From an uncultured bacterium (GTDB taxonomy: Bacteria; Planctomycetota; UBA1135; GCA-002686595), in contig CALSNU010000006.1 of NCBI GenBank assembly GCA_943787795.1, positions 352,001-416,000 on the forward strand: a stretch of 64,000 bases of DNA, in the 5' to 3' direction. The notes beneath the pieces are model-generated. The model was not told the DNA's origin and did not search any database. It was given only the letters and a program-made list of their open reading frames with translations. Shown here in pieces: positions 25,889 through 41,473 of this stretch. The position numbers and the translations under genes are program-made. Position 1 is the stretch's first letter, and the number at the start of each line of letters is the position of its first letter.

Positions 25889-26695
25889 TCACCCAGGCCG
25901 CCGCGCGATGACGTCGACGATCATCGGCGAGAACAGCAGCGCGTCTGGATTCCGGGCCAGCGCCGCCCACTCCTCGTCAAAGCTCTCGACCTCCTCCTCG
26001 CTCATGAGCCCCGCCTCGGCGTAGGTCCGCACGAAGGTCGGGAAGAAGGCGTCCAGCCAGCGGAACACGGGAGATTCCCCGTTGCCGGCCCGGACGTGGG
26101 GTCGGATCTCCTCGAGCTCGAACCCCGAGCGGCGAAGGGGTCCTGGGAGCCGGGCCGCCACCCAGGGATCCCCGCCTGCGCCGCGATAGAAGGCCCGCGT
26201 GGCCCGGATGGCCGCCTCGAACCCCGCGCTCTCGGGGAAGACCGAGACGCCCTCGTGGTTGTAGTCCTGAATCACGAGCACGCCCCCTGGCTTCAGGGCG
26301 CGCCGCAGCTTGGCGAGCACCGGATCCAGGTCCCCGAGGAAGCTGAACACCCAGCGGCTGAAGATGCAGTCGAAGCGCGCCTCCCCGAGGTCCGCCTCCT
26401 CGATCGTGGACTCGATGAACGTCACGGGCGCCGCGTAGTCGCGGGCCTCGAAGGCGGCCCGCCAGACCGGCGATTCGTCCAGACCGGTGACGTGCCCGGT
26501 GGCCCCGACCCGCGCGGCGAGGTCCCGGGTCACAAAGCCCGGACCAGCCCCCAGGTCGAGCACCATGTCCCCGGGCCCCACCCCGGCGCGATCAAGGGCG
26601 TCGGAGGCCAGGTCGCTCCAGACCCCGTGCTGGGCCTCGAGACGTTGGAGCTCACGGTCATTGGTGCCCAGGAGATACTCGGGGGTTTCGGACAT
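25889..26695 (-). CDS. Class I SAM-dependent methyltransferase
   Basis: YLLG...ELQRLEAQ, VLDLGAGPG (motif I), FDCIFSRWV and LKPGG motifs. Confidence 0.9.
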   Translation of the reverse strand: MSETPEYLLGTNDRELQRLEAQHGVWSDLASDALDRAGVGPGDMVLDLGAGPGFVTRDLAARVGATGHVTGLDESPVWRAAFEARDYAAPVTFIESTIEEADLGEARFDCIFSRWVFSFLGDLDPVLAKLRRALKPGGVLVIQDYNHEGVSVFPESAGFEAAIRATRAFYRGAGGDPWVAARLPGPLRRSGFELEEIRPHVRAGNGESPVFRWLDAFFPTFVRTYAEAGLMSEEEVESFDEEWAALARNPDALLFSPMIVDVIARRPG

Positions 26696-26720
26696 GGCCG
26701 AAGGGTACTATCGCTTCAAC

Positions 26721-27611
26721 GTGGAAGGGCCCCCTCGACCCCAGCAGCCGACGAATCCTCGGCCGACCCCGAGGCTCACCGTGGAGGATCACTCGCGGGA
26801 TGCCGCGGGTCTGACGTACGTCTACCCGGTCATCTCCCGTCGCTCCGGCGGTGTCTCGGTGGGGATCAACCTGAACCCGAACAACGCGTGCAACTGGGCC
26901 TGCGCCTATTGCCAGGTGGAGGGGTTGGTGCGAGGGGCCGCACCGGCCATCGACCTCGAACAGCTGAGCACCGAGCTCGCCGGCTTCCTCGACCTCGCCA
27001 GCACCGACGCCTGGATGGAGGTGCACGCGCCCGACGGGGCCCGCAAGATCACGGACATCGCCATCTCAGGAAACGGAGAGCCCACCACCTGCGACCAGTT
27101 CGCAGAGGTCCTCGAGCGCGTGATCGAGGTCCGCGGCGAGCGAGGGCTCGAGGTCCCGACGGTCCTGATCACCAACGGCTCCCGGGTCCATACGGACGGG
27201 GTCCAGGCCGGTCTGCGCGCCATGGCGAGAGCCCAGGGCCAGGTCTGGTTCAAGCTGGACCGCGTCACCGCAGCAGGGCGCCTGGAGGTCAACCGAATCC
27301 AGGGTGGAGCGGACCGCGCTGCAGATCAGCTCGCGCTCGCGGCATCATGCTGCCCGACCCGCGTCCAGACCTGCATGTTCACCGTCGACGGTCAGCCCCC
27401 GGACGAGGACGAACTGGAAGCCTACCTGGAGTTCCTTCGAGGCCAGGTCCGAGCCGGGACCTCCCTCGAGGGCGTCACGCTCTACGGGCTCGCCCGGCCC
27501 TCGATGCAGCCTGGCGCCGAGCGTCTCGGCCGGGTCGACGCCGCGTGGCTCGAGACCTTCGCTGAGCGTGTCCGTGTGGCGACCGGCCTGCCCGTGGCGG
27601 CCCACCCGTGA
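26721..27611 (+). CDS. Radical SAM protein (COG0731-like), copy 1
   Basis: YVYPVISRRSGGVSVGINLNP, CNWACAYC, SGNGEPT, ITNGS, WFKLD and YGLARPS motifs. Start uncertain (GTG 26721 or ATG 26694). Confidence 0.88.
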   Translation: MEGPPRPQQPTNPRPTPRLTVEDHSRDAAGLTYVYPVISRRSGGVSVGINLNPNNACNWACAYCQVEGLVRGAAPAIDLEQLSTELAGFLDLASTDAWMEVHAPDGARKITDIAISGNGEPTTCDQFAEVLERVIEVRGERGLEVPTVLITNGSRVHTDGVQAGLRAMARAQGQVWFKLDRVTAAGRLEVNRIQGGADRAADQLALAASCCPTRVQTCMFTVDGQPPDEDELEAYLEFLRGQVRAGTSLEGVTLYGLARPSMQPGAERLGRVDAAWLETFAERVRVATGLPVAAHP

Positions 27612-28489
27612 GCGCGCCCCTGGACCCAGGCTCGGAGCGGCGACGGCTCACGGCAGGGGACCACCGCCGGGATGGCGCGCAGCGGAGCATGGTCTACCCG
27701 GTCATGTCGCGGCGCGCCGGAGGGCTCAGCGTCGGGGTGAACCTGAACCTCGGCCAGGAGTGCAACTGGGCCTGCGCCTACTGCGAGGTCGAGGGGCTCG
27801 TCCGCGGCACCCCGTCCGCCATTGACCTGCAGCAACTCGAACGCGAACTGGACGAGGTCCTGAGCGAGGCCGCCTCCGGCCGCTGGACCGTCGAGGCCGA
27901 TGGCGAGCGCGGCGGCGCTGCCATCAAGGACATCTCCATCGCCGGCGACGGAGAACCAACGCTCGCTCCACAGTTCGCAGAAGCGGTGGAGATCTGCGCG
28001 CGGCTGCGGGAGCGCCACGGGCTCGGAGATTCCGCAAAGCTGGTGACCATCACCAACGGGAGCCGCCTCCACGTCCCCGCGGTCGAGGCAGGTGTCCGCG
28101 GCCTCGGCGGCGCCGGAGGCGAGCTCTGGTTCAAGCTCGACGGCGGAGATCCGGCGGCCCGGGAGAGGGTCAACGCCGTCGCCAGCCCCGACAACCGGGT
28201 GGAGGCCAACCTTGTCCTCGCCGCGTCCGCCTGCACCACTTGGGTCCAGTGCATGGCGCTGTCGATGGACGGAGAGGAGCCGAGCGATGACGAGATTGAC
28301 GGCCGCGTTGAGCTCATCGAGAGGGCCTGCGCCGCCGGAGCCCGGCCCGCGGGGGTGGTCATCTACGGGCTCGCCCGGCCATCTCAACAGCCCCAGGCCC
28401 ACCGACTCGAGCCCCTCTCCGGGCCCCGGCTGAGGTCCATCGCCGCCCGCTTCGAGCGCCTGCACCTGCCGCTTCGCGTCTTCGAGTGA
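27608..28489 (+). CDS. Radical SAM protein (COG0731-like), copy 2
   Basis: VYPVMSRRAGGLSVGVNLN, CNWACAYC, AGDGEPT, ITNGS, WFKLD and YGLARPS motifs; GTGA overlap with copy 1. Confidence 0.88.
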   Translation: MSAPLDPGSERRRLTAGDHRRDGAQRSMVYPVMSRRAGGLSVGVNLNLGQECNWACAYCEVEGLVRGTPSAIDLQQLERELDEVLSEAASGRWTVEADGERGGAAIKDISIAGDGEPTLAPQFAEAVEICARLRERHGLGDSAKLVTITNGSRLHVPAVEAGVRGLGGAGGELWFKLDGGDPAARERVNAVASPDNRVEANLVLAASACTTWVQCMALSMDGEEPSDDEIDGRVELIERACAAGARPAGVVIYGLARPSQQPQAHRLEPLSGPRLRSIAARFERLHLPLRVFE

Positions 28490-28503
28490 TTAGGATGGAC
28501 GGC

Positions 28504-29163
28504 ATGACCTCCTCCTCAGAATCCCAGGCGGCGGCGACCCGGCCAGCCACCCCGCCGGCGACCATCGATGAGCTCCGCCGCGCCGTGCGGCGCGGGGACC
28601 TTGAGGTGGCGAGGACGTTGCTGGAGGTCGACCCCTCCCTGGGCCGGGCCGACTCGGCGGGCGGTGGCTCTCTGCTGCTCGAGGCCATCGAACGCGAGCA
28701 CGATGAGGTCGCCGACCTCTTCCTCGGGACTCGCGCGCGCACGGGGGGCGAGGACCTTGACCTCCACGAGGCCTGTGCGCTGGGCCGGCCGGGCGCCGTC
28801 CGCCGCGCCATCACGGATGACGCGCTCGCGGGTGAGACCGCCGGCCCCGCCGGCTTCCTCCCGCTTCACCGAGCCGCCTTCCGTGGCGACGCAGACAGCG
28901 TCATGCTCCTCCTCGAGACCGGCGCCGACGCGAGCGCGAGGTCGGAGAACGCCGCGCGGCTGACCCCGCTCCACAGCGCCGTGGCCGGCCACGGCCGCGC
29001 GCGACCCCAGAGTGAACACGCCGCGGTCATCCGCGCGCTCCTCGCCGGGGGCGCCGACCCGCTGGCGGAGATGGACGGCGGGTGGACCCCGCTCGCCGCG
29101 GCCACGCAAGCCGGCGCCGCGGAGTTGATCGAAGCGCTCGGCGGCGCGCCCGCGGGCGCGTGA
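28504..29163 (+). CDS. Ankyrin repeat protein
   Basis: GFLPLHRAA, LTPLHSAV and GWTPLAAA repeats with LL.TGAD/LLAGGAD. ATG 28495 is an alternative start. Confidence 0.88.
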   Translation: MTSSSESQAAATRPATPPATIDELRRAVRRGDLEVARTLLEVDPSLGRADSAGGGSLLLEAIEREHDEVADLFLGTRARTGGEDLDLHEACALGRPGAVRRAITDDALAGETAGPAGFLPLHRAAFRGDADSVMLLLETGADASARSENAARLTPLHSAVAGHGRARPQSEHAAVIRALLAGGADPLAEMDGGWTPLAAATQAGAAELIEALGGAPAGA

Positions 29164-29167
29164 TGCC

Positions 29168-30112
29168 TTGACCGACGAGCCCCAAGGGCACCCGCTCGAC
29201 GGCGTGTGGGTCACGCTCGCGCCAGGCCATGACCTCTGCCGTGCCCAGGTCGCCGAGGCCGAGCGCGTCGGTGTCAGGGGACTCATCGCCGCCCACGCCG
29301 ACCTTCGTGGAGACGCGCTCACCGGGCGTGGCGCTGAAGATTCAGGCGCGACCTCGGGGACCGAGCGCGAGGCGGAGCACGCCGCACCCCCGGGCCTGGA
29401 ATCGCTCACGCTCCCCCTGCGCGTGGACCTCGACCCGGTGCAGCTGCGGACCCGCGGACCGGCGCTCCTCACGGACCTCCACGCACTTGGCCCGGACCTG
29501 GTGGGACTCCCCCTGGGCTCCACTGGGCCCACCGAGCTCCACAGCTGCCTGCGCCTCGCCGAGGCCATGGGGATCGAGCTGGTGCTCCTGCTCCATGACC
29601 CCCTCCAGGCTCCGCTGGCCATCGCCCTCGCGCATCAGTCCGAGCAGGTCGTGGGCTTCAGCGTCTCCCGCCACGACGAGGACGCCTTCGAGCTCCTCGC
29701 CGGGCGAGAGGATCTCGGGATCCTCACGGCAGCCCCTGAGTTCGCGAGCGCCTTTCGGGGTGGCGCGGGGGGCCTCGAGGGCTTCCCCGCGTCTCTCTCT
29801 CCCGGCGCGGCCGTCTGGCTCATGGGGCTCTGCCATGAGGACGTGGAAGCTGCCCTCGTGCTGGAGCGCCGGCTGCTGCGGTTCATGGAGGGGCATCTGC
29901 GCCCCGCCCTCCGGCGGCTGGAGGCCAGCGACGCCGCGGGGCCACCGGGGGTACTGGAACGAACGCTGCACGCCGCGGTCGGCGGGTGGGCTCCGTCCGG
30001 TCTCGGCGGAGGGACCCATCATCCGGCCCAATTGGGAGGCGGCGTGGATCCGCTGCCACTGCGGAGCCGGCTCCTCCACGAGATCCCGGAGCTGGAGCGG
30101 TTCATCAACTGA
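29168..30112 (+). CDS. Highly diverged dihydrodipicolinate synthase (DapA/NanA)-family-like protein
   Basis: N-terminal LDGVWVTL, plus GGAGG...ASLSP, AALVLERRL..FM..H and AAVGGW, resemble a DHDPS-like subfamily by eye; no Schiff-base Lys visible. Confidence 0.5.
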   Translation: MTDEPQGHPLDGVWVTLAPGHDLCRAQVAEAERVGVRGLIAAHADLRGDALTGRGAEDSGATSGTEREAEHAAPPGLESLTLPLRVDLDPVQLRTRGPALLTDLHALGPDLVGLPLGSTGPTELHSCLRLAEAMGIELVLLLHDPLQAPLAIALAHQSEQVVGFSVSRHDEDAFELLAGREDLGILTAAPEFASAFRGGAGGLEGFPASLSPGAAVWLMGLCHEDVEAALVLERRLLRFMEGHLRPALRRLEASDAAGPPGVLERTLHAAVGGWAPSGLGGGTHHPAQLGGGVDPLPLRSRLLHEIPELERFIN

Positions 30113-30230: not shown

Positions 30231-31016
30231 ATGCTCGCTCCGCTGCGCCTCACCCTGCTGGTCCTCGCTACGATCCCGCTGATCGTGTGCTGGCTCATGG
30301 CGGTGCCGCTGATGCTCCTGGTGCCCGCGACCGAGAGCGTCCTTCAGCCCATGCTCGTGGGGACCTGGGCACGGGTGACCCTCTGGATCATGGGCGTGCG
30401 CGTCACCGTTGTCGGCGAGCCGCCGTCCGGGGGCTTCTTCCTCGTGGCGAATCACCTCTCCTACATCGACATCCCGGTCCTGCTGGGCCGGCTCAACGGC
30501 CGCTTTCTCGCGAAGTCCGAGATCGCGTCGTGGCCCGTCATGGGCTTTCTCGCCCGGGCCACCGGAACGCTCTTCATCGACCGGAGCCGCAAGCGCGACC
30601 TGACCCGCGCCATCGAGGAGATCACCTCCCTGCTGGAGCGCGGCCCTGGGGTGATCGTCTTCCCCGAGGCCACGAGCACCGACGGTGCTGAGCTGCGCGA
30701 ATTCAAGCCGTCGCTCTTCGAGGTCCCCTCCCGCCTCGGCATCGACGTGCGCTGCGCCGCGCTCCACTACGCCAACCCACCCGGGGAACCGCCGGCCTGG
30801 GAGACGGTGTGCTGGTGGGGTGACGCCGACTTCGCGCCTCACTTCTGGGACTTCTTGAAGCTGCGCCGGACGGACGCCACGGTGACGTTCTCACCAGACG
30901 CCGTGAGCCACCAGGGCGCCGAAGGACCCCTCGGCCGCAAGGCCCTCGCCGAGAGCTCTCGAGCCGCCATCACGTCCATCTTCACGCCCTCCCGCCCCGC
31001 CGCCGAGCGCGCCTGA
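30231..31016 (+). CDS. Lysophospholipid acyltransferase (PlsC/OlsA-like)
   Basis: NHLSYID (HxxxxD), FLAKSEIASWP, FIDR and FPEATS motifs; C-terminal CWWGDADFAPH. Confidence 0.92.
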   Translation: MLAPLRLTLLVLATIPLIVCWLMAVPLMLLVPATESVLQPMLVGTWARVTLWIMGVRVTVVGEPPSGGFFLVANHLSYIDIPVLLGRLNGRFLAKSEIASWPVMGFLARATGTLFIDRSRKRDLTRAIEEITSLLERGPGVIVFPEATSTDGAELREFKPSLFEVPSRLGIDVRCAALHYANPPGEPPAWETVCWWGDADFAPHFWDFLKLRRTDATVTFSPDAVSHQGAEGPLGRKALAESSRAAITSIFTPSRPAAERA

Positions 31017-31076
31017 CCCCCGGCCAATGCCCACGACCTGCCCCCTGCTCGACGGAGATCCCTTGGCGCCAGAGCT

Positions 31077-32084
31077 GTGTGCACGCTGACCTGGATGCAC
31101 CGCGCGGACGGGGACCTCGGCGGCATGGCGGACGAGGATCCGCGTCCCCCGTTCCGCGGGGATCCGGTGGCCGGCTACCGGCTCTGGTTCAATCGAGATG
31201 AGCTGCGCTCGCGCGGCCCCGAAGTCCCGCCGCGCGTCGAGCAAACACCTGAGGGAATGCGCTACATCGCGCCTTCCGACTCCGACGCTGGAGGGACCTG
31301 GATCGCCGTCAACGAGCTCGGGATCACGGTCTGCCTGCTCAACGGCTATCGCGCCCCACAGTCCCCAGAGACTGAATCCACAAAGTCTGAATCCACGAGG
31401 TCTGACTCCACAGAGTCTGAGCCGCTGGACACTGCGGCGAAGGACTCTGCGGCGGAGGACTCTGCGGCGGAGGACTCTGCGGCGGAGGACTCTGCGCTAG
31501 AGGACTCTGCGCTAGAGGATTCTGCGGCGGAGAATTCCGAGGCGCAGGGCCGCGCGCGGTGGACGAGCCGCGGGCACCTCGTGCGCGAGCTCGCTGGCGT
31601 ACGCAGCCACGCCGAGGTCTGGCGGCAAATGGCCCCCGGTCAACTCGCTCGCTATCGCCCCCTCGTCCTCGCCGTCCTGGTCCCTGACCGACCTGCGCTG
31701 ATCGTGCGGTGGGACGGTAGGGACGCCGTCCTGGACCCCAGGGGCGAGCTGCAGCTGCCGGTCATCTCCTCCAGCCACGAGCAGTCCGAGGTGGACCGGC
31801 GTCGGCGGCAGCGCTTCCATGACATGGTGCGCACGGACCCCAGTAGCGGTCAGCCGATCCACGCCGCAGAGCTAGAGGCCTTTCAGTCCTGGGCGCCGGA
31901 GGCCGGCGCCGACGCCTACAGCCCCTCCATGTCGCGCCCCGACGCCGGGACCCGCAGCCAGTGCATGGTCGTGGTGAGCCCTGAGGAGGTCCGGCTCCGC
32001 TACACCGCTGGCCCCCCCCACTCAACCCAGCCGGGCCCGAGCGTCCGGCTCCCCCGCCGGATGAAACCGCGGAGCCGCCGATGA
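31077..32084 (+). CDS. NRDE (TANGO2) family protein
   Basis: N-terminal MCT, then FNRDE, GGTWIAVN, CLLN and SRGHLV motifs. Confidence 0.9.
   Translation: MCTLTWMHRADGDLGGMADEDPRPPFRGDPVAGYRLWFNRDELRSRGPEVPPRVEQTPEGMRYIAPSDSDAGGTWIAVNELGITVCLLNGYRAPQSPETESTKSESTRSDSTESEPLDTAAKDSAAEDSAAEDSAAEDSALEDSALEDSAAENSEAQGRARWTSRGHLVRELAGVRSHAEVWRQMAPGQLARYRPLVLAVLVPDRPALIVRWDGRDAVLDPRGELQLPVISSSHEQSEVDRRRRQRFHDMVRTDPSSGQPIHAAELEAFQSWAPEAGADAYSPSMSRPDAGTRSQCMVVVSPEEVRLRYTAGPPHSTQPGPSVRLPRRMKPRSRR
31370..31537 (+). repeat. In-frame 15-bp tandem repeat encoding (ESTxS)n and (DSAAE/DSALE)n
   Basis: GACTCTGCGGCGGAG units read directly inside the NRDE gene. Confidence 0.9.
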
Positions 32085-34843
32085 CCACGGCTCCCCACGG
32101 CTCCGACCAGCCCGGCACCTCCAGCCGCGCGCGGCCCATGCTCCGACGCCCCCTCTGGCGACTGGGTCTGGCCTACGGTGCCCTGCTGGTCGCCTCATGG
32201 GTCGTCATGCTCCAGCCGGCACCCCCCGCGTCCCCCGGGAGCATGGGGCGAGCCGCCCGCGAGCTCCCCACCTTCAGCGACGACGGCGTGCCGCTCGCCT
32301 CAGCGGCCGGAGCCAGCCCCGCCCCGGCCGCCCCCGCCGCCCCGGCCGCCCCGACCGCCCCGACCGCCCCGGCCGCCACCGTCGCCTACCTCGACACCGC
32401 CGCGAGTCCCGACCTCGGCACCGACAGCCAAACCGAGGGTGGCGACGGCCCCCCTCTTGTGCTGTTCCACGGGAGCCCGGGGAGCGCTGGCGACTTCGTG
32501 CGCCTGCTCCCGGACCTCTCTGCCGCTCGGCGCCTGATCGTGCCTGACCTCCCGGGCTTTGGAGCGTCCGAGCGTGACGTCCCGAGCTACTCCGCGAGGG
32601 CTCACGCGGCGTACGCAGCCGCCCTGCTGGATGATCTCGGCGTGGACCGCGCCCACGTGCTTGGGTTCAGCATGGGCGGCGCCGTGGCCCTCGAGCTCGC
32701 GGCCGTGGCGCCCGAGCGCGTCCTCTCCGTGACGATGCTGGCGTCCATCGGCGTCGAGGAACTCGAGCTCCTCGGGGACCACACCCTGAACCATGGACTG
32801 CACGGACTCCAGCTCGCCGCGCTCCAGGCCGCGCGCTGGCTGCTCCCCCACTTCGGCGCCCTGGACCAGGGCATGCTGACGCGGCAGTACGCCCGCAACT
32901 TCTTCGACACCGACCAGCGCCGCCTGCGTCCGATCCTCGAGGAGCTCGCGCTACCCACCCTGATCATCCACGGCGAGGACGACTTCCTGGTCCCCGTGGC
33001 GGCGGCCCAGGAGCACGCCAGGATCGTCCCCCAGGCTGAGCTCTCCGTGGCGGCCTCGCCCCGCGGGCACTTCATTCCCTGGACCGAGCCCCGCTGGATC
33101 GCCGGCCTTGTGGCGGACTTCCTGGCAAGGGTGGATCGCGGAGAGGGGCGCACTCGGGCGCGCGCGACACCCGAGCGGGTCGAGCGCTCCGCGGCGGCGT
33201 TCGACCCCTCCGGAGTGCCGCCCTTCGAGGGCCCCGCGTGGCTGGCGGTGCTCCTTCTCCTGGCCCTGGGCACCCTCGTGTCCGAGGACCTCTCCTGCAT
33301 CGCCGCTGGCCTCCTGGTCGCCGACGGGAGGCTCGGTTTCGTCGCCGCCGCAGGGGCCTGCTTCGTGGGCATCTTCGTCGGGGACCTCGCCCTGTTCGCC
33401 CTGGGCCGACTGCTAGGACGCCCCGCCCTCGCCGCCCGGCCCATGCGCTGGATCGTCACCGAGTCCGCGGTGGAGCGCGCCAGCCGATGGTTCGAGCGGA
33501 AGGGCATCGCGGTCATCTTCCTCTCTCGCTTCACCCCTGGCCTCAGGCTCCCGACCTATGTGGCGGCGGGCCTGCTGCGCACCCCGCTCGGCACGTTCGC
33601 GGGCTTCTTCGCCCTGGCTGGCCTCATCTGGACGCCGCTCCTGGTCGGAGTCGCAGCCTCCGCTGGAGAGGCTCTCGCCGAGCGGCTGGGCTCCCTTGGC
33701 GCCGCTGAGTTGCCCTGGGTGCTGGGGCTCGTCGTGCTGCTCATGCAGCTCTATCGGCTCCTGCCGCTCACCCTGACCCACACGGGTCGGCGCCGGCTCC
33801 GGGGACGTTGGGTCCGGCTCACGCGATGGGAATTCTGGCCCCCTCTCCTCACCTATCCCCCCGTCCTGCTGTGGATCCTCTGGCTCGCCCTCCGGCACCG
33901 GTCGCTGTCCGTGGTCACCGCCGCGAACCCGGGCATACCGGCCAGCGGCGTGGTCGGGGAGTCAAAGTCGCTCATCCTCGACGCCCTTGACCCCGACTCG
34001 CCGGAGATCGCGGGGCACACCCTGCTGTCGGCGGCAGCCTCCCCGGCAGCCCGCGAGCAGGCCGCGACCCGTTTCATGGAGCGCTTCGGCGCGGACTTCC
34101 CGGTGATCGTGAAGCCCGACGCCGGCCAACGCGGCTCGGGAGTTCGCATGGCGCCGGACGCCGAGACCCTGCTGAGGTGGGCCCGGGAGGTCCGGCATGA
34201 CGCCATCATCCAGGAGCGGATTGACGGGCCCGAGTTCGGGATCTTCTACGCGCACGAACCGGGCGCTGCGGAGGGCGACGTGCTCGGCGTCACGATCAAG
34301 CTCTTGCCGACGGTGGAGGGCGACGGTCAGCGCACCGTCGAGGCGCTGCTCCTGGAGGACGACCGGGCCTGCGCGATGCACGGCGCCTACATGGACGAGC
34401 TGGGCGCACGCGCGGAAGACGTCCCCGGCGCGGGCGTGCAGGTGCCCCTGGTCAAGGTCGGCACCCACTCCCGAGGCGCCATCTTCCTGGACGGCGAACA
34501 CCTGATCACTCCGGCGCTTCGCGAGGCCATGAATCGAATCGCAGCGCGCTTCGATGGCTTCCACCTTGGCCGCTTTGACGTGCGCGCCCCGTCCGCTGAA
34601 GCCCTCGCGCGCGGCGAGGGGCTCGGCGTGATCGAGCTGAACGGGCTGACCTCCGAGCCGACCGAGATCTATGACCCGGCCATGCCCCTTCGAAGCGCGT
34701 ACCGCAAGCTCTTCGACCAGTGGCGCCTGGCCTTCGAGATCGGCGCGGCCAACGTCGCGCGAGGCGCGACCACGACCTCGCTCCCGAGCATTCTGCGCGA
34801 ATGGGTCCGCTACCAGCGAGCCCAGCGGACCCACACCACGTGA
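32081..34843 (+). CDS. Three-domain protein: alpha/beta hydrolase + DedA/VTT membrane domain + ATP-grasp ligase
   Basis: Hydrolase: HGSPG, DLPGFG, GFSMGG, IHGEDD, GH. DedA: SEDL, GIFVGDLALF, FLSRFTPGLR. ATP-grasp: TAANPGI, VIVKPDAGQRGSGV, IIQE, GRFDVR, IELNG. One uninterrupted 920-aa ORF. Confidence 0.88.
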   Translation: MTTAPHGSDQPGTSSRARPMLRRPLWRLGLAYGALLVASWVVMLQPAPPASPGSMGRAARELPTFSDDGVPLASAAGASPAPAAPAAPAAPTAPTAPAATVAYLDTAASPDLGTDSQTEGGDGPPLVLFHGSPGSAGDFVRLLPDLSAARRLIVPDLPGFGASERDVPSYSARAHAAYAAALLDDLGVDRAHVLGFSMGGAVALELAAVAPERVLSVTMLASIGVEELELLGDHTLNHGLHGLQLAALQAARWLLPHFGALDQGMLTRQYARNFFDTDQRRLRPILEELALPTLIIHGEDDFLVPVAAAQEHARIVPQAELSVAASPRGHFIPWTEPRWIAGLVADFLARVDRGEGRTRARATPERVERSAAAFDPSGVPPFEGPAWLAVLLLLALGTLVSEDLSCIAAGLLVADGRLGFVAAAGACFVGIFVGDLALFALGRLLGRPALAARPMRWIVTESAVERASRWFERKGIAVIFLSRFTPGLRLPTYVAAGLLRTPLGTFAGFFALAGLIWTPLLVGVAASAGEALAERLGSLGAAELPWVLGLVVLLMQLYRLLPLTLTHTGRRRLRGRWVRLTRWEFWPPLLTYPPVLLWILWLALRHRSLSVVTAANPGIPASGVVGESKSLILDALDPDSPEIAGHTLLSAAASPAAREQAATRFMERFGADFPVIVKPDAGQRGSGVRMAPDAETLLRWAREVRHDAIIQERIDGPEFGIFYAHEPGAAEGDVLGVTIKLLPTVEGDGQRTVEALLLEDDRACAMHGAYMDELGARAEDVPGAGVQVPLVKVGTHSRGAIFLDGEHLITPALREAMNRIAARFDGFHLGRFDVRAPSAEALARGEGLGVIELNGLTSEPTEIYDPAMPLRSAYRKLFDQWRLAFEIGAANVARGATTTSLPSILREWVRYQRAQRTHTT

Positions 34844-34992
34844 CCCATCTTCAACGATGGTGTATTTTCGCCCCCGCGAATCCTCACGATCGCTTGATGC
34901 CTGACGCCAGGCACCTTCGAGTATCAAAGATCGCTCCCTGGCCAACGGGGGCTCCTCCCTTCCCGGAAATTCGACCCGCGGGGTCGCTGCAC

Positions 34993-35820
34993 GTGCCCGA
35001 CCAAGACCACCGCCAGCTCAGGCTACCGGCGACGCGAGCTCGCTCAGCGCTGCTCGACGACCAGCACCTGATCCCCGATACCGACGTCAGCCTGGGCCCC
35101 TATCGCCTGCGCTTTGCGCGGACCCTCGATGACCTTGCGATGGTCCGGCGTCTCCGTTACGCGGTCTTCAACGTCGAGCTTGGCAAGGGCCTCGCGGGCT
35201 CCCACGAGACCGGGGTGGACGCCGACGCGTTCGACCGCCAATGCCAGCACCTGATGGTCCTCGAGCGGGAGACGGGCGCGGCGGTAGGGACCTACCGCAT
35301 GCAGACCGCAGCCACCGCGCGCGCGGGGCACGGCTGGTACACCTCGGGCGAGTTCGAGCTGGGAGAGATGCCCGCGGACATCATCGGGAACGCGGCGGAG
35401 CTGGGCCGCGCCTGCGTCGCCGGCGCCCACCGGGACAAGACCGTGCTCTTCCTGCTCTGGCACGGCCTCATCCAGTACGCGCAGCACACCGGAGTGACAG
35501 CGTTCTTCGGCTGCAGCTCGCTCGCGGGTACTGACCCCAAGCCCGCCGTCGCGCTCTACGCCCAGCTGCTCCGGGATCGCAAGGTCCACCCTGAGCTCAA
35601 GGCTCCCCCTCGCCTCACCATGGCTTGCCCCCTTGTCTCGTGGCCCGATGGCGACGAGGCGGAGCGCGTGGAGGTCCCCAAGCTCTTCGCCACCTATCTG
35701 CGCCACGGAGGCCTCATCCTTGGCCCACCCGCCGTGGACCACGAGTTTGGCACCATCGACTTCCTCACCTGGGTCGAGGTCCGGCCCCGCCACATCAGGC
35801 TCTTCGGAAGGGTCCGCTGA
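34993..35820 (+). CDS. GNAT-fold N-acyl amino acid synthase (OlsB-like, Acetyltransf_5)
   Basis: RLRYAVF, D.D.FD..CQHL.V, VGTYR, YTSGEF, ELGRACV, FGCSS, P.L...YLR.G and P.VD.EFGT.DF motifs. Start uncertain (GTG 34993 or ATG 34897). Confidence 0.88.
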   Translation: MPDQDHRQLRLPATRARSALLDDQHLIPDTDVSLGPYRLRFARTLDDLAMVRRLRYAVFNVELGKGLAGSHETGVDADAFDRQCQHLMVLERETGAAVGTYRMQTAATARAGHGWYTSGEFELGEMPADIIGNAAELGRACVAGAHRDKTVLFLLWHGLIQYAQHTGVTAFFGCSSLAGTDPKPAVALYAQLLRDRKVHPELKAPPRLTMACPLVSWPDGDEAERVEVPKLFATYLRHGGLILGPPAVDHEFGTIDFLTWVEVRPRHIRLFGRVR

Positions 35821-35995: not shown

Positions 35996-38900
35996 CTAGT
36001 CGCCGTCCTCGTCGAGCTCGTCCTCGTCCTCTTCTGGTTCGCGCACGACCTCAGGTAGGGGCCGATCCGGGCGGCCGTGATCCCGGAAGACCGTGAGCCA
36101 GTGGTCGATGATCGGGTTGTCGAGAGCCACGGCACCGATCCACGGCTGAGCCTCGCGGACGATGTCCGAGGCGTCGAGGAACATGATCCAGCGGCGCCCC
36201 TGATCAATCCCCGCGGCCGCGTCGACGGGATCCTCCACGGCCACCCGGTGGAAGAGGATCGTCGGGGCCGGTAGCTCACCCGCAGCCTCCGCGAGCTCTT
36301 CGGCGAGCCCAGCCTTCACGGCCTCCTCCGACAGCCGCTCGGGGAGCAGCAGCACCATGGGCTGCACGATGTCCCGTCGCACCATTCGCTCGATGAGCGA
36401 GACGGCCGTCTTCCGGGTGCGGGAGACGATCGCTCCGTCCCCGGTGGACCCTGTCCGGCGCTGACGGATGCCCTCGGACTTGGAGTGCGCGGGGATCCAG
36501 AGCAAGAGCGTCCCGTTGCTCGAGGGCGCGCGGCCCCCCTGGAACAGGACCCGCTGGTTGTTCACCTTCTCGAAGGACGGCCCCGTTCCACGGGAGAGGT
36601 CCAGGGCGGCCAGATCCGAGGTGACGCCCGCGGCTCGCGCGGGCTCCCCGTCCGTGCGCCGGGCGATCGGCGGGGAAAGGGCCACCGCTCCGGACGCGGT
36701 GCCGAAGCCCACGTAGCCCTCGATGGGCGCACCGTCGATGGTGTGATACGTCCCTGCGTACTCGCCGGCGATCCACGCCGACACCGCCGAGCCCTCCACG
36801 AGCAGCTCGAGCTGCACCGAGGTCTGAGACTTGGTCACGGTGACCGCGCCAGCGCGGGCGCTCCCGGGCAGCCCGCTGTCTCGCGGCCGCAGCCCGTCGA
36901 AGGCCCAGTTGACGCTCTTGAACTCAGCGCTCGAGTCCTTCTCACCCCTGGCGTAGTCCCAATCCGTGGCCGTGAGCCGCAGCCTCACGTTGCGCTCACG
37001 GCTGGTCCAGCCCAGCACCGCCAGGAAGGAGTTGGAGCCTGTCGTGAAGGACACGCGCGTGGAGATCGAATAGGAGCCCGGCAGCATCCACCGGTCCGCG
37101 CGGAGGAAGGACTTCCCTCCGCCTCGTCGATCCATGTCTCCGGTCCCTGCCTGACGTTCACGGCGCCCCAGCAGGAGGCTCCCGTCCGGCTCGATGCGAT
37201 AGAGCCGCTTGGGCCGATTCTTGTCGAGGCTGGTCAGCTCCTCGTCACGCCAACCGGTGAGCCCCACCGACAGGCCCGGGAGCGGGGTCGCCGGGAGCGC
37301 CGCCTCGACGGCCTCCCGCTTGTCCTGGATCCCCGCCCACGCCGCCACCCTCAGGCCCTCCAGGCGGAGCCGGGCGCTGCTCCCCTGCAGCCCCGCTCCA
37401 CGGAGCACCTCGGCAGCCGCCAGCACCTGCTTGTGATAGTCCGACACCGCCAGTAGCCGGGACGGAAAGGGGCTCCCTGGGGCCTCCATCAAGACGCCGC
37501 TGAAGGGCTCCCCTCGGCTCTCGTGTGCGGTGACCCAGAGCGCCTCGAGCTCGTACGTCGTGGGCCTGGAGGGGACGCCGAGCGCCTGCTTCAGGCCCTG
37601 GCTGATCCGGCGGTCGTAGCCGTCCACCGCGCGCGCCCAAACGAGCGCCCGGATGGCGGCGTCTCGGTCCCCGTGGTCGGCGAGGAGAAGGCCCGCTTCG
37701 CGCGCCTGGTTCTGCCCGAACAGCGGCTCGGCGCGATTCCAGTCCCAGGTCCACGTGGGCTCGTCGTAGACCCAGGTACCCTTCTCCGTCTTCGGGAAGC
37801 CGGAGCGGTAGCGCGCGGTCCAATCCGCGGGCTCTTCCACGTCAAACCCGGCCAGGAACTCGAAGAACATCTCCTGGAACCCGTCGACGGAGGATGGCCG
37901 CCCGTCCTCGCCGTCGCAGAACTGCTCCTCGAAGTCGTCCAACCGCCCCTTGGGGCTGGACGAGTGATCCCCCGAGTCCTCGAAGGCCGCGAGGCGCTCC
38001 GCGAAGATGGGCGTGCCCCCGGAGAGCTTGCGCGCGTCCCCCTCGAACCAGGTCCTCAGGAACACGTAGAGCGCGTTCCCCACCGAGTAGTTCTCTCTGT
38101 AGTCCTCCGGCTCGCCTCGCAGCAGCGCCTCGAGCCTCCCAAGGCCTGCCGCGCCCCGCCCGAGGACGCCGCGCAGGGTCCCGGGGCTGCAGTGGTCGAA
38201 GGCGAACTCGGGGTCATCGGTGAACGCGTAGGCCGCGCCGGTCCACGTGGCCCGGCCCTCGGCGAGCCAGGCCGGGATGCCCGGGTGCAGCGCGCCATCG
38301 AACCGGTGGGTCAACTCATGGGTCAGCCCTCGGCCGAGCCCCGGGATCGTGCCGACGCTGAACTGCAGCACCGTGGTGTCGCCCCCCTGAAAGCCCCCAG
38401 CCCAGAAGAACGGAGCCCCCTCTGCCTCCAGACCGCTCGGGTCCGGGACGATGCGCACGATCCCCTGCCGCGGCGTCCGTCCGTTGAAGGGGTCCGACCC
38501 GAAGTAGGCGACGAGGCGCTCGTGGTGCTTCTCCACGGTGCTGGCCACGCCCAGCAGCGTCTCGTAGCCGCAGTCAGACTCCACCCGGTACCAGCCCCGC
38601 GGGCTCACAGCGACGCCCGGCTCCGAGAAGTCGCTGTGCTTCCTCGTGAAGGCCTCGCCCTCGTCCGAGGCGAGCCACTCCAGCTCCTCCACGGTCCAGG
38701 GCTTGTCGCTGTCATTGACCATGCGCTGTCGAGCGCGAGCGGCGAGCTCCGCGCCCTTGGAGCGCCAGCGAGGCATGCCTCCTGGACGCGGTCCGCGCAG
38801 GTCCTTGAAGTCCGCCTGGGCGCCCAGCCCCCGCATGATCCGCGCGGCACGCAGCGCCAGGCCGGGCTGCGACCGGGAGAGGGCATCCTCCGCCAGGCGC

Positions 38901-39565
38901 TGGAGCGCCTTGAGCACGGGGACGTGAGCCCCTCGCGGCGCGTGCACCTCCGGAGCGAGCTGGCCCCTGGCCTCGCGGTAGATCGATGGCGACTGAAGGG
39001 CGAGATCGAGGGCGAAGCGGCGAGCCCAGGCCGCCGTGAGCAGTTGCTCGGGGCTCCGTGCGCCCTTTGATTCGCGCTCCCCGGCGAGGCGCACCAGCTC
39101 CGTTACCGCACGGGCCCGAGCGCGAGCGAGATCGGTGCCGACCTGCACGAGGTTCACCTCGTCGGCTTGGCCGTCGAAGGCGCCTCGAGGGGCCCGCGCG
39201 CCCGGCTTCCCCTTGGCGTCGACCACGAGGTCCGCCCAGGCGAGCGCCGCGCGGGCGAGGGCGTCGTCATCTCCCGCTCCGCGGGCCACCTCGGCCAACC
39301 CCAGGAGGGCCTCCCTGCGGACCTCCGGGTCCCCCGCCACCGCCCGCTCAAAGTGCCCCGTCGCGCTCTCCTGCTCGCCCCTCTCCAGGGCCTGCTGTCC
39401 GGCCTTGAGGGCCTTCTCCGCCTCCGACTTCCGATCCGGGCTGGACCCCTCCAGGGCGAGGGGCGTCACGCCGGCGACGGGGGCCATGGCGCCCCCTGGA
39501 AGGAGCGTCGCCGCGGGAGCACCCGCCGCGAGCGGGGCGAGGACGGTGATGAGGAGTGCGAACAT
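35996..39565 (-). CDS. Large secreted protein (about 1190 aa) with a TPR-like N-terminus and a gluzincin HExxH motif
   Basis: Signal-like MFALLITVLAP; LTHELTHRF..PAWLAEG..NYSVG..LY; beta-rich C-terminal part. Confidence 0.75.
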   Translation of the reverse strand: MFALLITVLAPLAAGAPAATLLPGGAMAPVAGVTPLALEGSSPDRKSEAEKALKAGQQALERGEQESATGHFERAVAGDPEVRREALLGLAEVARGAGDDDALARAALAWADLVVDAKGKPGARAPRGAFDGQADEVNLVQVGTDLARARARAVTELVRLAGERESKGARSPEQLLTAAWARRFALDLALQSPSIYREARGQLAPEVHAPRGAHVPVLKALQRLAEDALSRSQPGLALRAARIMRGLGAQADFKDLRGPRPGGMPRWRSKGAELAARARQRMVNDSDKPWTVEELEWLASDEGEAFTRKHSDFSEPGVAVSPRGWYRVESDCGYETLLGVASTVEKHHERLVAYFGSDPFNGRTPRQGIVRIVPDPSGLEAEGAPFFWAGGFQGGDTTVLQFSVGTIPGLGRGLTHELTHRFDGALHPGIPAWLAEGRATWTGAAYAFTDDPEFAFDHCSPGTLRGVLGRGAAGLGRLEALLRGEPEDYRENYSVGNALYVFLRTWFEGDARKLSGGTPIFAERLAAFEDSGDHSSSPKGRLDDFEEQFCDGEDGRPSSVDGFQEMFFEFLAGFDVEEPADWTARYRSGFPKTEKGTWVYDEPTWTWDWNRAEPLFGQNQAREAGLLLADHGDRDAAIRALVWARAVDGYDRRISQGLKQALGVPSRPTTYELEALWVTAHESRGEPFSGVLMEAPGSPFPSRLLAVSDYHKQVLAAAEVLRGAGLQGSSARLRLEGLRVAAWAGIQDKREAVEAALPATPLPGLSVGLTGWRDEELTSLDKNRPKRLYRIEPDGSLLLGRRERQAGTGDMDRRGGGKSFLRADRWMLPGSYSISTRVSFTTGSNSFLAVLGWTSRERNVRLRLTATDWDYARGEKDSSAEFKSVNWAFDGLRPRDSGLPGSARAGAVTVTKSQTSVQLELLVEGSAVSAWIAGEYAGTYHTIDGAPIEGYVGFGTASGAVALSPPIARRTDGEPARAAGVTSDLAALDLSRGTGPSFEKVNNQRVLFQGGRAPSSNGTLLLWIPAHSKSEGIRQRRTGSTGDGAIVSRTRKTAVSLIERMVRRDIVQPMVLLLPERLSEEAVKAGLAEELAEAAGELPAPTILFHRVAVEDPVDAAAGIDQGRRWIMFLDASDIVREAQPWIGAVALDNPIIDHWLTVFRDHGRPDRPLPEVVREPEEDEDELDEDGD

Positions 39566-39647
39566 GGAGCCTGGCGCTGGGCGGAATGACGAACGGACTG
39601 GGAAGCCAACCTGGAGCGATACCGCTGGGTTGTGCCAGGATAACCCC

Positions 39648-40607
39648 ATGCTTCTCTCCCACCATTGGCTCCCCGCCTCCTCTGGCCTCGCAGCCCTCTG
39701 CCTCGCGTCCTGCGCATCCCACTCCTCAGGGACGGGCCCGCTGGAGGTTGACGAGGCGAGCTGGGCCGCCACCGGAGCGGAGCTCCCCGTCGCGCTCCTG
39801 CGAACGCCCGGCCAGGAGCGCATCTCCATCGAGGAGGCCGCCGACGAGCTCGCCGACGCGGACGTCATCTTCCTCGGCGAGCAGCATGACTCCGCAGAGG
39901 GACACGCTGTCCAGCTGGCCCTGACCAAGGCCATCGCCGAACGCAGGGGCCGCATCGTCCTCTCCATGGAGATGCTCGAACGCGACAGCCAACGGCTCCT
40001 GGACATGTACCTGAGGGGAGAGATCGACCAGGAGGCGTTCCGGTCCGCCGCGCGCCTGTGGCCCAATTACCAGGCGCACTACGAGCCCGCTGTGGAGTTC
40101 GCGCGAGAGGGCGGGCACGACGTCCTCGCGGCGAACGTGTACCGGCCCGTGGCCTCCAGGGTCGCCCGACAGGGACTCGACTCCGCCATGGGCGAAGTCT
40201 GGGCAGCGTCGAGCGTGGATACGTCACCCGGCGAGTACCGGGACCGCTTCGACGCGGTCATGTCGGGCCATGGAGGGATGGACGAGGCCGTGATGGACCG
40301 CTTCTTCGCTGCCCAGTGCATCAAGGACGACACCATGGCGGAGAGCATCGCCCGGCGCCTCGCCTGCGACCCTGGGGACCCGCCCGTGGTCATTCACTGG
40401 AACGGCCGCTTCCACAGCGACTACGGGCTCGGCACCGTCGAGCGCCTCCGCGCGCGCCAGCCCGACCTGAACATCGCCGTGGTCTCCATGCTCACGGACG
40501 TGCAGCTCTCGCGGCCCCTGGCCGAGGAGGCCCTGAACCAGGGGCACTACATCATCCTGGTCCAGGCCCCCAGAGAGGGCGAGTCAGAGAGCCGGACAGC
40601 GGACTAG
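39648..40607 (+). CDS. ChaN family (cofactor/heme-binding) lipoprotein
   Basis: LCLASC lipobox; ADVIFLGEQHD, LSMEM, Q..LD.YL.GEI, LWPNY..HY.P, AQCIKDDTMAESI and GRFH motifs. Confidence 0.88.
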   Translation: MLLSHHWLPASSGLAALCLASCASHSSGTGPLEVDEASWAATGAELPVALLRTPGQERISIEEAADELADADVIFLGEQHDSAEGHAVQLALTKAIAERRGRIVLSMEMLERDSQRLLDMYLRGEIDQEAFRSAARLWPNYQAHYEPAVEFAREGGHDVLAANVYRPVASRVARQGLDSAMGEVWAASSVDTSPGEYRDRFDAVMSGHGGMDEAVMDRFFAAQCIKDDTMAESIARRLACDPGDPPVVIHWNGRFHSDYGLGTVERLRARQPDLNIAVVSMLTDVQLSRPLAEEALNQGHYIILVQAPREGESESRTAD

Positions 40608-41365: not shown

Positions 41366-41370
41366 GACAA

Positions 41371-41429
41371 GGAAACTATAGTTCACAGCAGAGGTGGCTG
41401 TGGGATTTATATTTCCCACGCCAGCCACC
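41371..41429. promoter_or_regulatory. Candidate BoxR operator palindromes in the boxR-boxC divergent promoter
   Basis: AACTATAGTT palindrome (41374-41383) and inverted repeat GGTGGCTG-TGGGA-tttatatt-TCCCA-cgc-CAGCCACC (41393-41429); AT-rich relative to the rest of the window. Confidence 0.5.
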
Positions 41430-41473
41430 CCACCGTTCACCGCCCATCCCTGCACACCGACCCGATCGTGACG

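Follow-up and report, generated by a model that had tools for sequence, protein, structure and literature searches.

The window, that is, the whole 64-kb stretch of marine bacterial DNA that was analysed, carries four open reading frames on the + strand (30231-31016, 31077-32084, 32081-34843 and a GNAT frame ending at 35820), in agreement with a preliminary description of four co-oriented genes separated by 60, -4 and about 150 nt. With the last gene starting at GTG 34993, adopted here because it agrees with close relatives, the third gap measures 149 nt; the ORF finder's start, 34720, would make this gene overlap the fusion gene. Pfam/NCBIfam, profile and fold searches bear out the domain calls originally made (OlsA-like, NRDE, hydrolase-DedA-ATP-grasp and OlsB-like), and the GFSMGG and IELNG motifs lie where they had been placed, at 32663-32680 and 34631-34645. 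The features are as follows.

30231..31016, + strand: PlsC-family O-acyltransferase, OlsA-like, 261 aa (PF01553, 75 bits; HX4D motif H75/D80)
31017..31076, no strand: 60-nt gap between the OlsA-like and NRDE genes, the site of a DinB-fold gene in most relatives, lost in this lineage
31077..32084, + strand: NRDE/TANGO2-family Cys-Ntn hydrolase, 335 aa, GTG start (PF05742, 25.5 bits; cut-off 22.6)
31359..31541, + strand: acidic low-complexity loop insertion of the NRDE protein, with DSAAE repeats; none of the 19 aligned homologs has it
32081..34843, + strand: 920-aa fusion of signal anchor, alpha/beta-hydrolase, DedA (VTT) and ATP-grasp (Abhydrolase_1, 108 bits; VTT/DedA, 64 bits)
32162..32212, + strand: N-terminal hydrophobic segment after arginines, predicted from sequence as an N-in, C-out anchor
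32447..33136, + strand: serine alpha/beta-hydrolase domain, predicted periplasmic (triad S197-D301-H330)
33236..33775, + strand: DedA/VTT domain (PF09335, 64 bits; E402, D403, D435, R483 and R489 100% conserved)
33800..34840, + strand: ATP-grasp ligase, cyanophycin-synthetase/GshAB type by profile and fold, predicted to be cytoplasmic and to begin with a hydrophobic helix
34845..34860, + strand: weak terminator-like hairpin between the fusion and OlsB-like genes (1 found, 1.4 expected in shuffles)
34993..35820, + strand: GNAT5 N-acyltransferase, OlsB-like, about 275 aa (PF13444, 94 bits; start set from relatives)

In public marine DNA run X3, four contigs that overlap one another cover the four genes and differ little from the window, which makes an assembly artefact an unlikely source of the arrangement. 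Two marine RNA runs, from a study that may also be the source of the window DNA, also cover all four genes in short contigs, and two of these bridge gene junctions (30934-31303 and 34779-35117); being contigs from RNA libraries, they prove neither transcription nor a single transcript. The hairpin is no more than chance. No Rfam match was found within the 64-kb window, and a search for sigma-70 promoters returned no match.

The outer two genes encode the acyltransferase pair. In the OlsA-like protein, H75, D80 and E146 are 100% conserved (80 alignment rows), and the OlsB-like gene is the sole PF13444 gene found in the genome. OlsA and OlsB are the best NCBIfam matches of the two proteins, at scores below the cut-offs (130 and 127 bits against 300 for the OlsA models, 126 against 350 for OlsB); these equivalog models are genus-narrow, and a proven V. 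cholerae OlsF homolog also falls under its own cut-off (432 vs 620). The pair shares the GNAT5 (PF13444) and PlsC (PF01553) families and the HX4D motif with the OlsB/OlsA ornithine-lipid pathway of the Sinorhizobium/Rhodobacter type but scores under the equivalog cut-offs, so the family match does not settle the amino acid, a point against a role in tailoring ornithine lipid. Other routes to ornithine lipid, a phosphorus-free membrane lipid built on an amino acid, employ OlsF or OlsH/OlsI.

The NRDE protein contains Cys2, N39-R40-D41-E42 and N89 (C2, R40, D41, E42 and N89 are 100% conserved in 64 rows), and no signal peptide was seen in it. Its profile matches the human TANGO2 structure 8sv7 (E 1.2e-5) over about 110 residues, ending near TANGO2 residue 127 and thus before Asn157/Lys166, for which the invariant S231/S232 and R243 are candidate equivalents. 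Judged from the alignment, the acidic insert is lineage-specific. Human TANGO2 and Shewanella HtpA have PF05742 membership, Cys2 and the NRDE motif in common with the window protein, which forms a distant subfamily. TANGO2 is similar to Cys-Ntn amidases that act on fatty-acyl amides (PMC13044924), which counts for the tailoring function proposed below; the substrate of human TANGO2 is unknown, and acyl-CoA binding and heme trafficking have been put forward for TANGO2/HtpA. The accessible part of the HtpA paper gives no operon context for the Shewanella gene. A heme role suggested by a nearby ChaN-like gene was dropped, as that gene clusters with the module only in close relatives (11 loci).

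A DinB-like ORF fills the OlsA-NRDE gap in 12 of 12 relatives having a long gap, and a DinB gene at this position is the usual form of the module (76 of the 114 loci compared). None was found in this genome (85% complete) by HMM or alignment search, or in its four closest relatives (G004, G006, G015 and G017) by alignment search. The DinB model folds as DinB/YfiT, with no specific function indicated; metal-dependent bile salt hydrolases were set aside as not relevant, having an amidohydrolase fold and not that of DinB in the available portion of their description (PMC13081902). Decay of the NRDE protein after DinB loss was rejected: the catalytic residues are intact, and its divergence in DinB-less pairs, about 1.5-1.9 times that of the ligase, lies inside the 0.9-2.4 range of DinB-bearing pairs.

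The three-domain fusion occurs in 172 of 269 proteins examined. In the cultured Saltatorellus ferox the fusion is 61% identical to the one here, and Paracoccus denitrificans PD1222 is another native host (PDEN_RS24485 and neighbours). The N-terminal hydrophobic segment is present in 118 of 143 full-length fusions, with positive charge higher before than after it in 107 of the 118, and only 1 of 172 has a TM-like segment in the hydrolase-DedA linker. On charge and hydropathy, including the DedA loop charges, the hydrolase is predicted to face outward and the ligase to lie in the cytoplasm, across the DedA domain. The membrane tether earlier proposed for the ATP-grasp domain is retained, with the correction that the hydrolase is predicted on the face opposite the ligase. 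The hydrolase triad is conserved at 94/98/97% (172 rows), as are, strongly, the polar cap residues E227, E229, N237, H241, R272, D278 and R283, and PDB matches of the domain are generic esterases. No signal peptide was found on a separate Paracoccus hydrolase, which counts against the tailoring function. A role for the hydrolase as an OlsI-type O-acyltransferase replacing OlsA was rejected, a PlsC gene being present in 51 of the 65 hydrolase loci as well; cross-scores between the fusion hydrolase and GH3-adjacent hydrolases are 27-152 bits vs 174-636 within families, in a comparison to which OlsI itself is external. The DedA acidic residues (re-entrant helix 1) and two arginines (re-entrant helix 2) fit, when mapped by spacing, the pattern given in the available text of PMC10127716, and the domain scores 57-61 bits against the UptA-type undecaprenyl-phosphate flippase model, below the cut-off of 250. 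It appears to carry transport-type residues; lipid transport itself is a prediction. Fusions of DedA to lipid synthases or lipases have been interpreted as synthesis-plus-flipping units in the portion consulted of PMC10193950, a point for the tailoring function.

The ligase profile finds CphA (E 1.7e-8) and GshAB (1.3e-7) in the PDB, and its AlphaFold model (pLDDT 91) has CphA2, GshAB and CphA1 as top Foldseek matches at TM 0.4-0.5; a single-sequence PDB search gave nothing significant, and no Pfam match was obtained for the ATP-grasp domain. Residues K678, Q711, E718, R831, D833, E852 and N854 are 99-100% conserved across 172 family-wide rows. K678, Q711, E718 and D833 align with CphA, and the roles of R831 and E852/N854 we take to be those in D-Ala-D-Ala ligase. 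As judged from sequence and model, the fusion ends in an intact ATP-grasp ligase domain whose activity is well supported. The cyanophycin synthetase G domain and the GshAB glutathione-synthetase domain are the closest solved ligases and share an insertion after the GDG motif; the window ligase differs in its low identity to them (about 18%), in lacking the polymer- or glutamylcysteine-forming domains, and in its N-terminal membrane helix. The mean Kyte-Doolittle value of that helix exceeds 1.0 in 80% of the 171 family members, among them stand-alone ligases, as would suit a substrate in the membrane. Matches with E up to 1e-30 place at least 1,026 clusters (50% identity) in the family. Its Vibrionaceae members are often labelled D-alanine--D-alanine ligase, a label rejected here: Ddl chains rank below CphA and GshAB, and no Ddl model is present among all Pfam matches or the best 25 of 45 NCBIfam matches.

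Co-occurrence elsewhere, on which the preliminary description had staked its four-gene set, is found across phyla: an aminolipid synthase lies within about 9 kb of the ligase in 78 of the 114 loci, which are neither a random nor an independent sample (76 of 96 loci with DedA, 2 of 18 without). A single gene copy per 5 Mb is expected inside an 18-kb span 0.4% of the time, and the ligase-synthase linkage far exceeds chance. In a 301-genome sample of the phylum, all 34 ligase-bearing genomes carry a gene of PF13444 (OlsB/OlsF-type) or PF03321 (GH3, OlsH-like) vs 106 of 267 others; ten of the 34 count via GH3 only and come from just 3 families, in one of which GH3 is common (13/17), and a hydrolase adjoins this OlsH-like candidate in only 5 of the ten, all of which counts against the tailoring function. 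Three non-homologous synthase types adjoin the module: OlsB plus OlsA, fused OlsF (8 of 114 loci), and a hydrolase-GH3 pair like OlsI/OlsH (loci L163 and L111). A direct ligase-GNAT fusion (locus L114) favours the tailoring function, while 36 of the 114 loci, including 11 of 11 from the stand-alone clade, have no synthase nearby and count against it. NRDE is present in 57 loci, the hydrolase in 65, and all of the window's parts in only 24. NRDE and the hydrolase are accessory parts, and it is the ligase that defines the set; DinB, YHS and DoxX are optional partners, none of which is present here. The link to aminolipid synthesis is stronger than first described, with three unrelated synthase types. 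Mutual replacement of hydrolase and NRDE was rejected (p 0.26 over all 114 loci); an anti-correlation outside this genome's own group (nominal p 0.017) is not significant in 7 independent tree pairs (median p 0.5), and none of the other part-pair tests listed on the tree reached 0.05.

The V. cholerae run VCA0651-VCA0646 is the same module; it encodes DedA, a 'D-Ala-D-Ala ligase', DinB, NRDE, YHS and OlsF (identified through two published primer sites on locus L195 and the annotation in two tables). A ligase of the same family sits there in a single run of genes with DedA, NRDE and an ornithine-lipid synthase, but DedA and ligase are separate genes, no hydrolase is fused, OlsF replaces OlsB plus OlsA, and DinB and YHS are present. 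Without the other genes, the linked synthase VCA0646 yields plain ornithine lipid, and a modified lipid is not reported (PMC12186959). Of the observation named in the preliminary description as evidence against its pathway, plain ornithine lipid left unchanged by the other genes, the first half is thus seen, for VCA0646 as the one linked synthase tested. Three further observations speak against tailoring: under low-salt conditions, label from 14C-ornithine appeared on 1D TLC in ornithine lipid and at the origin and nowhere else; the fragment tested as a promoter upstream of VCA0649 is weak and not salt-induced, and VCA0646 has its own promoter; and the overexpression phenotype needs only OlsF and YHS, the NRDE and DinB genes being dispensable. 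The six genes change together in two RNA-seq tables, which counts in favour. Authors writing in 2024 described 0646-0649 as genes whose functions they did not know, and only VCA0646 has demonstrated activity; as to a T6SS phenotype of vca0647, the assays in its source disagree, and it was left aside.

We give an even chance to the reading that the four genes tailor and export an acyloxyacyl amino lipid, ornithine lipid being the likeliest: the ligase would extend the head group, DedA flip the product and the two hydrolases trim or recycle it. The fold and conserved site of the ligase, its membrane helix, the nearby synthase in over two thirds of loci, the three unrelated synthase types, the complete genome co-occurrence and the ornithine-lipid product of the linked V. 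cholerae synthase all point this way. From family knowledge, the OlsB-like and OlsA-like enzymes would make a diacyl lipid whose alpha-carboxylate is free, as is the delta-amine in the case of ornithine. The membrane-bound cytoplasmic ATP-grasp enzyme would then form an acyl-phosphate and couple the head group to an amine or an amino acid; the lipid carboxylate is a more likely target than the delta-amine. The DedA domain may carry the anionic product across the inner membrane, where the fused serine hydrolase, predicted to lie outside, could trim or deacylate the lipid and so set its level, as AcvB does with lysyl-PG. The cytoplasmic NRDE protein may act as an Ntn amidase, cutting an N-acyl amide (the added link or the lyso-lipid) for recycling. 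Of the pathway first proposed, the domain calls, the intact ligase site and the aminolipid link stand, while the product, the amine and the hydrolase roles remain proposals.

The same parts could serve turnover of plain ornithine lipid: the outer hydrolase would remove the ester chain, DedA import the lyso-lipid, NRDE cut the amide, and the ATP-grasp enzyme re-activate the fatty acid or lyso-lipid as an acyl-phosphate. Two hydrolases of suitable chemistry, the outside-to-inside layout, the plain ornithine lipid of the V. cholerae reports and a review that treats fatty-acid activation to acyl-phosphates in N-acyl amide formation (PMC11631085) agree with such salvage. It is nonetheless unlikely, given that the nearest ligase relatives join amino acids, that the ligase co-occurs with GH3 enzymes, already activators of free fatty acids, and that both hydrolases are optional (neither is present in 21 of 114 loci). 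A lipid carrier, loaded by the ligase with an amino acid or amine and flipped by DedA so that the outer serine enzyme passes the group or an acyl chain to LPS, peptidoglycan or protein, would keep the modified lipid scarce and explain the absence of an accumulated product on TLC. The conserved polar cap and the alpha/beta-hydrolase that serves as an acyltransferase in the OlsHI route suit this idea, but 49 of 114 loci have no hydrolase and surface-polymer genes are not recurrent among the clustered neighbour families, which leaves it quite improbable.

The order of events could also be reversed, with the ligase making a soluble dipeptide or modified amine that the OlsB-like enzyme acylates instead of ornithine. 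GshAB and Ddl-type relatives do use small soluble substrates, and the sub-threshold acyltransferase scores leave room for this; yet the linked OlsF needs no ligase to use plain ornithine, a specificity change would be required in each of three unrelated N-acylating enzymes, and the ligase is membrane-anchored or fused to DedA, so that we hold this order to be somewhat more improbable still. Finally, the ligase module may have some other substrate, such as a small thiol, and stand beside aminolipid genes only through an envelope-stress regulon. ECF sigma/anti-sigma pairs, DoxX, a YHS (seleno)protein and MsrQ/Rieske genes do recur as neighbours, the V. cholerae module genes fall together with cpxP, msrB and thioredoxin 2, and the stand-alone clade has no nearby synthase. 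Shared regulation alone, however, would hardly produce the 34/34 co-occurrence, the in-operon synthase replacement and the ligase-GNAT fusion, and this explanation is very improbable.

Several known systems bear on the preferred tailoring and export function. MprF works by aminoacyl-tRNA ester transfer. The window would differ from MprF and AcvB in its ATP-grasp amide chemistry and non-glycerol lipid, and no MprF or AcvB/VirJ family match was found for the window proteins (Pfam; best 25 of 45 NCBIfam matches), so the resemblance is one of layout: as far as the consulted parts of PMC13197417 and PMC10193950 go, MprF/LpiA with the periplasmic hydrolase AcvB, and DedA-MprF fusions, likewise combine an inner synthase, a flipper and an outer level-setting hydrolase. 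An ATP-dependent amide extension of ornithine lipid, its gene unknown, is described for cerilipin (taurine-ornithine lipid) in the available part of PMC12971839 and favours tailoring; the cerilipin synthase activity is the same chemistry as predicted for the window ligase. The ligase family reaches Komagataeibacter and Gluconacetobacter (Acetobacteraceae), and no Gluconobacter name appears among the best 120 matches to an Acetobacteraceae member, most of them unnamed, so the cerilipin link is unsupported. Sulfur aminolipids of Desulfatibacillum, glycerol-based in the accessible text of PMC11181052, were set aside as not relevant. No published description of the module was found in the literature searched, whose coverage of subscription papers is thin.

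Ornithine lipids have been predicted for about half of bacteria and have links with stress and polymyxin tolerance, according to the available parts of the literature. A 2026 review, in the sections available, lists hydroxylations, N-methylation and taurine transfer as modifications, mentions no DedA, ATP-grasp or NRDE partner, and names no enzyme for ornithine-lipid di-/tripeptide head groups. The module is a concrete candidate for such amide extension and for inner-membrane crossing of these lipids. On a more tentative reading, less likely than not to hold, the ligase family would be the missing ATP-dependent class that extends the ornithine-lipid head group; ligase, DedA and outer hydrolase together would run an MprF/AcvB-like cycle, reversible and independent of tRNA, on a lipid that lacks glycerol, with the TANGO2-like protein as an acyl-amide amidase. 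The boldest form, to which only a small share of the total probability is given, has the added group carrying sulfur, so that the DinB, YHS selenoprotein, DoxX and MsrQ-like partners would point to a membrane-bound thiol buffer. Should the amidase reading of NRDE be correct, a first class of natural substrates would be known for the TANGO2 family; already the homolog gains a defined lipid context and with it a short list of acyl-amide substrates to test. Domains are now also assigned to a V. cholerae operon earlier studied as 'unknown function', and the window offers a useful test case, since four genes without DinB, YHS and DoxX seem to suffice.

The four genes lie as the preliminary description had claimed:

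30231-31016, OlsA-like PlsC acyltransferase gene (ORF call, Pfam; best NCBIfam match OlsA)
31077-32084, NRDE/TANGO2 gene (ORF call; Pfam TANGO2 just above cut-off)
32081-34843, hydrolase-DedA-ligase fusion gene (ORF call; Pfam alpha/beta-hydrolase and VTT)
34993 (probable GTG start) to 35820, OlsB-like GNAT gene (Pfam Acetyltransf_5; best NCBIfam match OlsB)

A single DNA run spans all four as four overlapping contigs, and the public runs holding the window's DNA are marine. OlsA and OlsB are the top NCBIfam matches of the acyltransferase pair, both with scores below the cut-offs; the pair probably works like OlsB/OlsA, though it falls short of being filed as such. The nearest named homologs of the fusion belong to Planctomycetota, including Saltatorellus ferox (61%). 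One public run has 9 additional nt in the Ala/Pro repeat of the fusion gene (near 32320-32380), and the NRDE protein carries a lineage-specific DSAAE repeat insert (31359-31541).

The C-terminal domain of the fusion has no Pfam match, and a single-sequence search against the PDB returned nothing significant. A 16-sequence profile placed cyanophycin synthetase first (E 1.7e-8) and GshAB next (1.3e-7), and the same two are the fold matches of an AlphaFold model (pLDDT 91); the nearest Atlas clusters are ATP-grasp-like. Residues K678, Q711, E718, R831, D833, E852 and N854 (fusion numbering) are 99-100% conserved over 172 family-wide rows, R831, E852 and N854 presumably playing the roles of their counterparts in D-Ala-D-Ala ligase. 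Profile, fold matches and conserved residues bear out the ATP-grasp assignment made earlier for this terminus. The family comprises 2,658 clusters at E ≤0.001 (1,026 at 1e-30) and occurs as stand-alone ligases, DedA fusions and hydrolase plus DedA fusions; the domain begins with a hydrophobic helix in 80% of 171 members. The family-membership tests listed place the fusion outside Ddl, MprF/AcvB, UptA and OlsI.

A hydrophobic N-terminal segment is present in 118 of 143 full-length fusions; among these 118, the flank preceding the segment is the more positively charged one in 107. A TM-like stretch in the hydrolase-DedA linker occurs in only 1 of 172. Median K/R counts (172 rows) are 8 in the loop following the first DedA TM helix and 7 in the stretch preceding the ligase, and 1 each in the TM2-TM3 loop and the stretch preceding the first re-entrant helix. 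Taken with a DedA core of two re-entrant and three TM helices (PMC10127716), charge and hydropathy predict the hydrolase on the outer face and the ligase on the inner. A free Paracoccus hydrolase in which no signal peptide was seen counts against the generality of the outer-face placement. The hydrolase triad S197-D301-H330 and DedA residues E402, D435, R483 and R489 are conserved. On Paracoccus denitrificans plasmid 1 (locus L124, 8911-11602), ligase, alpha/beta-hydrolase and VTT are three separate adjacent genes, so that the parts of the fusion remain together while unfused. The hydrolase domain of some fusions (proteins P0148 and P0266) falls below the profile threshold and is seemingly degenerate.

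The neighbourhood survey took in 146 loci, of which 20 came from relatives, 80 were genome matches (the best out of 595), 6 were plasmid matches (out of 29) and the rest came from two phylum samples (20 loci each, chosen out of 67 and 34 matches). Removal of 5 duplicates and 27 short-flank loci left 114, a sample skewed to best-scoring matches in which kin are not independent. DedA was found at 96, GNAT5 and DinB at 76 each, PlsC at 66, hydrolase at 65 (two decided by hand, L124 in and L111 out), NRDE at 57, DoxX at 26, YHS at 25 and an OlsF-type O-acyltransferase at 8. GNAT5 accompanied by an O-acyltransferase occurred at 72/114, the complete set of parts present in the window at 24/114, and the window's exact gene order at 4 loci, all of close kin. 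Record titles indicate Planctomycetota, Acidobacteriota, Desulfobacterota, Verrucomicrobiota, Rhodothermota, Bacteroidota, Chloroflexota and Pseudomonadota, a few titles looking like mislabelled bins. Among the tests listed, no part-pair association on the tree reached 0.05. At L193 the operon is split by ~10 kb, DinB and NRDE keeping with the acyltransferases and away from DedA-ligase (one case). Several Acidobacteriota and Verrucomicrobiota loci (L096, L120, L108 and others) hold a bigger recurring set with an MsrQ-like/Rieske fusion, DoxX, YHS, aquaporin, GMC oxidoreductase, VOC protein, SDR and ECF sigma.

In relatives a DinB-fold gene sits between OlsA and NRDE, and NRDE occurs without it at only 5 of 57 loci. 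Among 61 related genomes searched, DinB was found in 22, all ligase-bearing, and was not found in the window's own genome (85% complete) or its four closest relatives. Judged by gene content, the DinB gene is lost in this lineage; in the NRDE protein the catalytic residues are retained, without added divergence.

At genome level, 301 Planctomycetota genomes were sampled, with the ligase in 34, PF13444 (GNAT5) in 52 and PF03321 (GH3) in 98. One or the other of the latter two families is present in 34/34 ligase-bearing genomes versus 106/267 others. PF13444 accounts for 24 of the 34; the remaining ten have no match to the window's GNAT either and all carry GH3, though they represent just 3 families and the hydrolase adjoins GH3 in only 5. 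At L163 (1778-10325) one run comprises ECF sigma, anti-sigma-like, alpha/beta-hydrolase, GH3, DinB, NRDE and hydrolase-DedA-ligase genes, the hydrolase-GH3 pair lying directly 5' of DinB-NRDE-fusion in place of OlsB/OlsA; at L111 such a pair and DedA-ligase are divergently oriented. In make-up the pair matches OlsI/OlsH, the third ornithine-lipid route (PMC12493201). In the window's genome GNAT5 is represented by a single gene, and GH3 is missing. In the stand-alone ligase clade a synthase is nearby in 0/11 loci; of five such genomes, PF13444 elsewhere is strong in three, weak in one and missing in one, the last two having GH3.

Vibrio cholerae also carries the ligase. Locus L195 (99% identical) has the order DedA, ligase, DinB, NRDE, YHS, OlsF, and published primer sites on it identify the OlsF start as VCA0646 and the 5' end of DinB as VCA0649. 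The quorum-regulated vca0646-0649 operon (L195, 7420-12710) is thus OlsF, YHS, NRDE and DinB, with ligase and DedA directly upstream. In published work, VCA0650 is labelled a D-alanine-D-alanine ligase (Table 1 of PMC7600106); all six genes drop together in an iurV mutant (log2 -2.0 to -2.9; PMC7600106); and in HapR data five genes change by +1.5, +1.6, +1.5, +1.4 and +1.3 (FDR 0.016) and DedA by +0.8 in the same direction (FDR 0.096), two rows labelled 'hypothetical' being identified by gene order (PMC11573629). The promoter fragment upstream of VCA0649 is weak. In E. coli, VCA0646 by itself suffices for ornithine lipid synthesis, and at low salt it is responsible for that lipid in V. cholerae (PMC12186959). 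The overexpression effect, a cell-death phenotype, required only OlsF and YHS, that is, lipid synthase and YHS protein (bioRxiv 2024.09.23.614608). Because YHS is needed with the synthase and its homologs have an N terminus resembling a signal peptide, there is a hint that it handles lipid beyond the inner membrane. Together the V. cholerae data support one functional unit centred on ornithine lipid.

ATP-grasp enzymes activate a carboxylate, and a free carboxylate is available on ornithine lipid. That the module extends the head group of an aminolipid, then flips and trims the lipid, stands about an even chance; ornithine lipid is the likeliest substrate because it is the common product of three characterised synthase routes. 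The ligase would activate its carboxylate and extend the head group by an amide (substrate and product putative), DedA would flip the product, and the outer hydrolase would trim or control the modified lipid. Several papers offer parallels: taurine is a known ATP-dependent amide extension of ornithine lipid with no gene assigned (PMC12971839), DedA-synthase fusions are interpreted as make-and-flip units (PMC10193950), and the fusion resembles in layout LpiA/AcvB, where an outer hydrolase is reported to control a modified lipid (PMC13197417). TANGO2 resembles Cys-Ntn amidases acting on acyl amides (PMC13044924) and is reported to bind acyl-CoA (PMC11867700).

On TLC of V. cholerae at low salt, label appeared only in ornithine lipid and at the origin (PMC12186959), which counts against an abundant modified lipid under that condition. 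Turnover of the aminolipid with no new lipid formed is an unlikely but serious reading. A role of the lipid as carrier for a surface acceptor seems distinctly less probable, and a soluble precursor as ligase product slightly less probable again. Least credible is a ligase module joined to the aminolipid genes by shared regulation only.

Searches of openly accessible papers and preprint texts, by combined family names and by the V. cholerae locus tags, turned up no description of the module. It is real and conserved, and apparently no publication has described it: a novel version of aminolipid metabolism whose product is putative. The window contributes a DinB-less form with four genes, the predicted placing of ligase and hydrolase on opposite sides of the membrane, and the 34/34 genome count.

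The forward-strand stretch upstream (26487-30112) encodes a tandem pair of radical-SAM paralogs (PF04055), an ankyrin protein and a 314-aa ORF without annotation; it ends 118 nt before the cluster, and its genes cluster only with close relatives. A 1356-aa reverse-strand ORF (35996-40066), without Pfam or NCBIfam match, converges on the cluster and is kept in 13 related loci. A forward-strand ChaN/Tiki-family gene (PF04187; 39036-40607), ~3 kb from the cluster, has local synteny only, and 40604-44687 holds ordinary benzoyl-CoA (box) genes, with regulator, BoxC and BoxB above their cut-offs.
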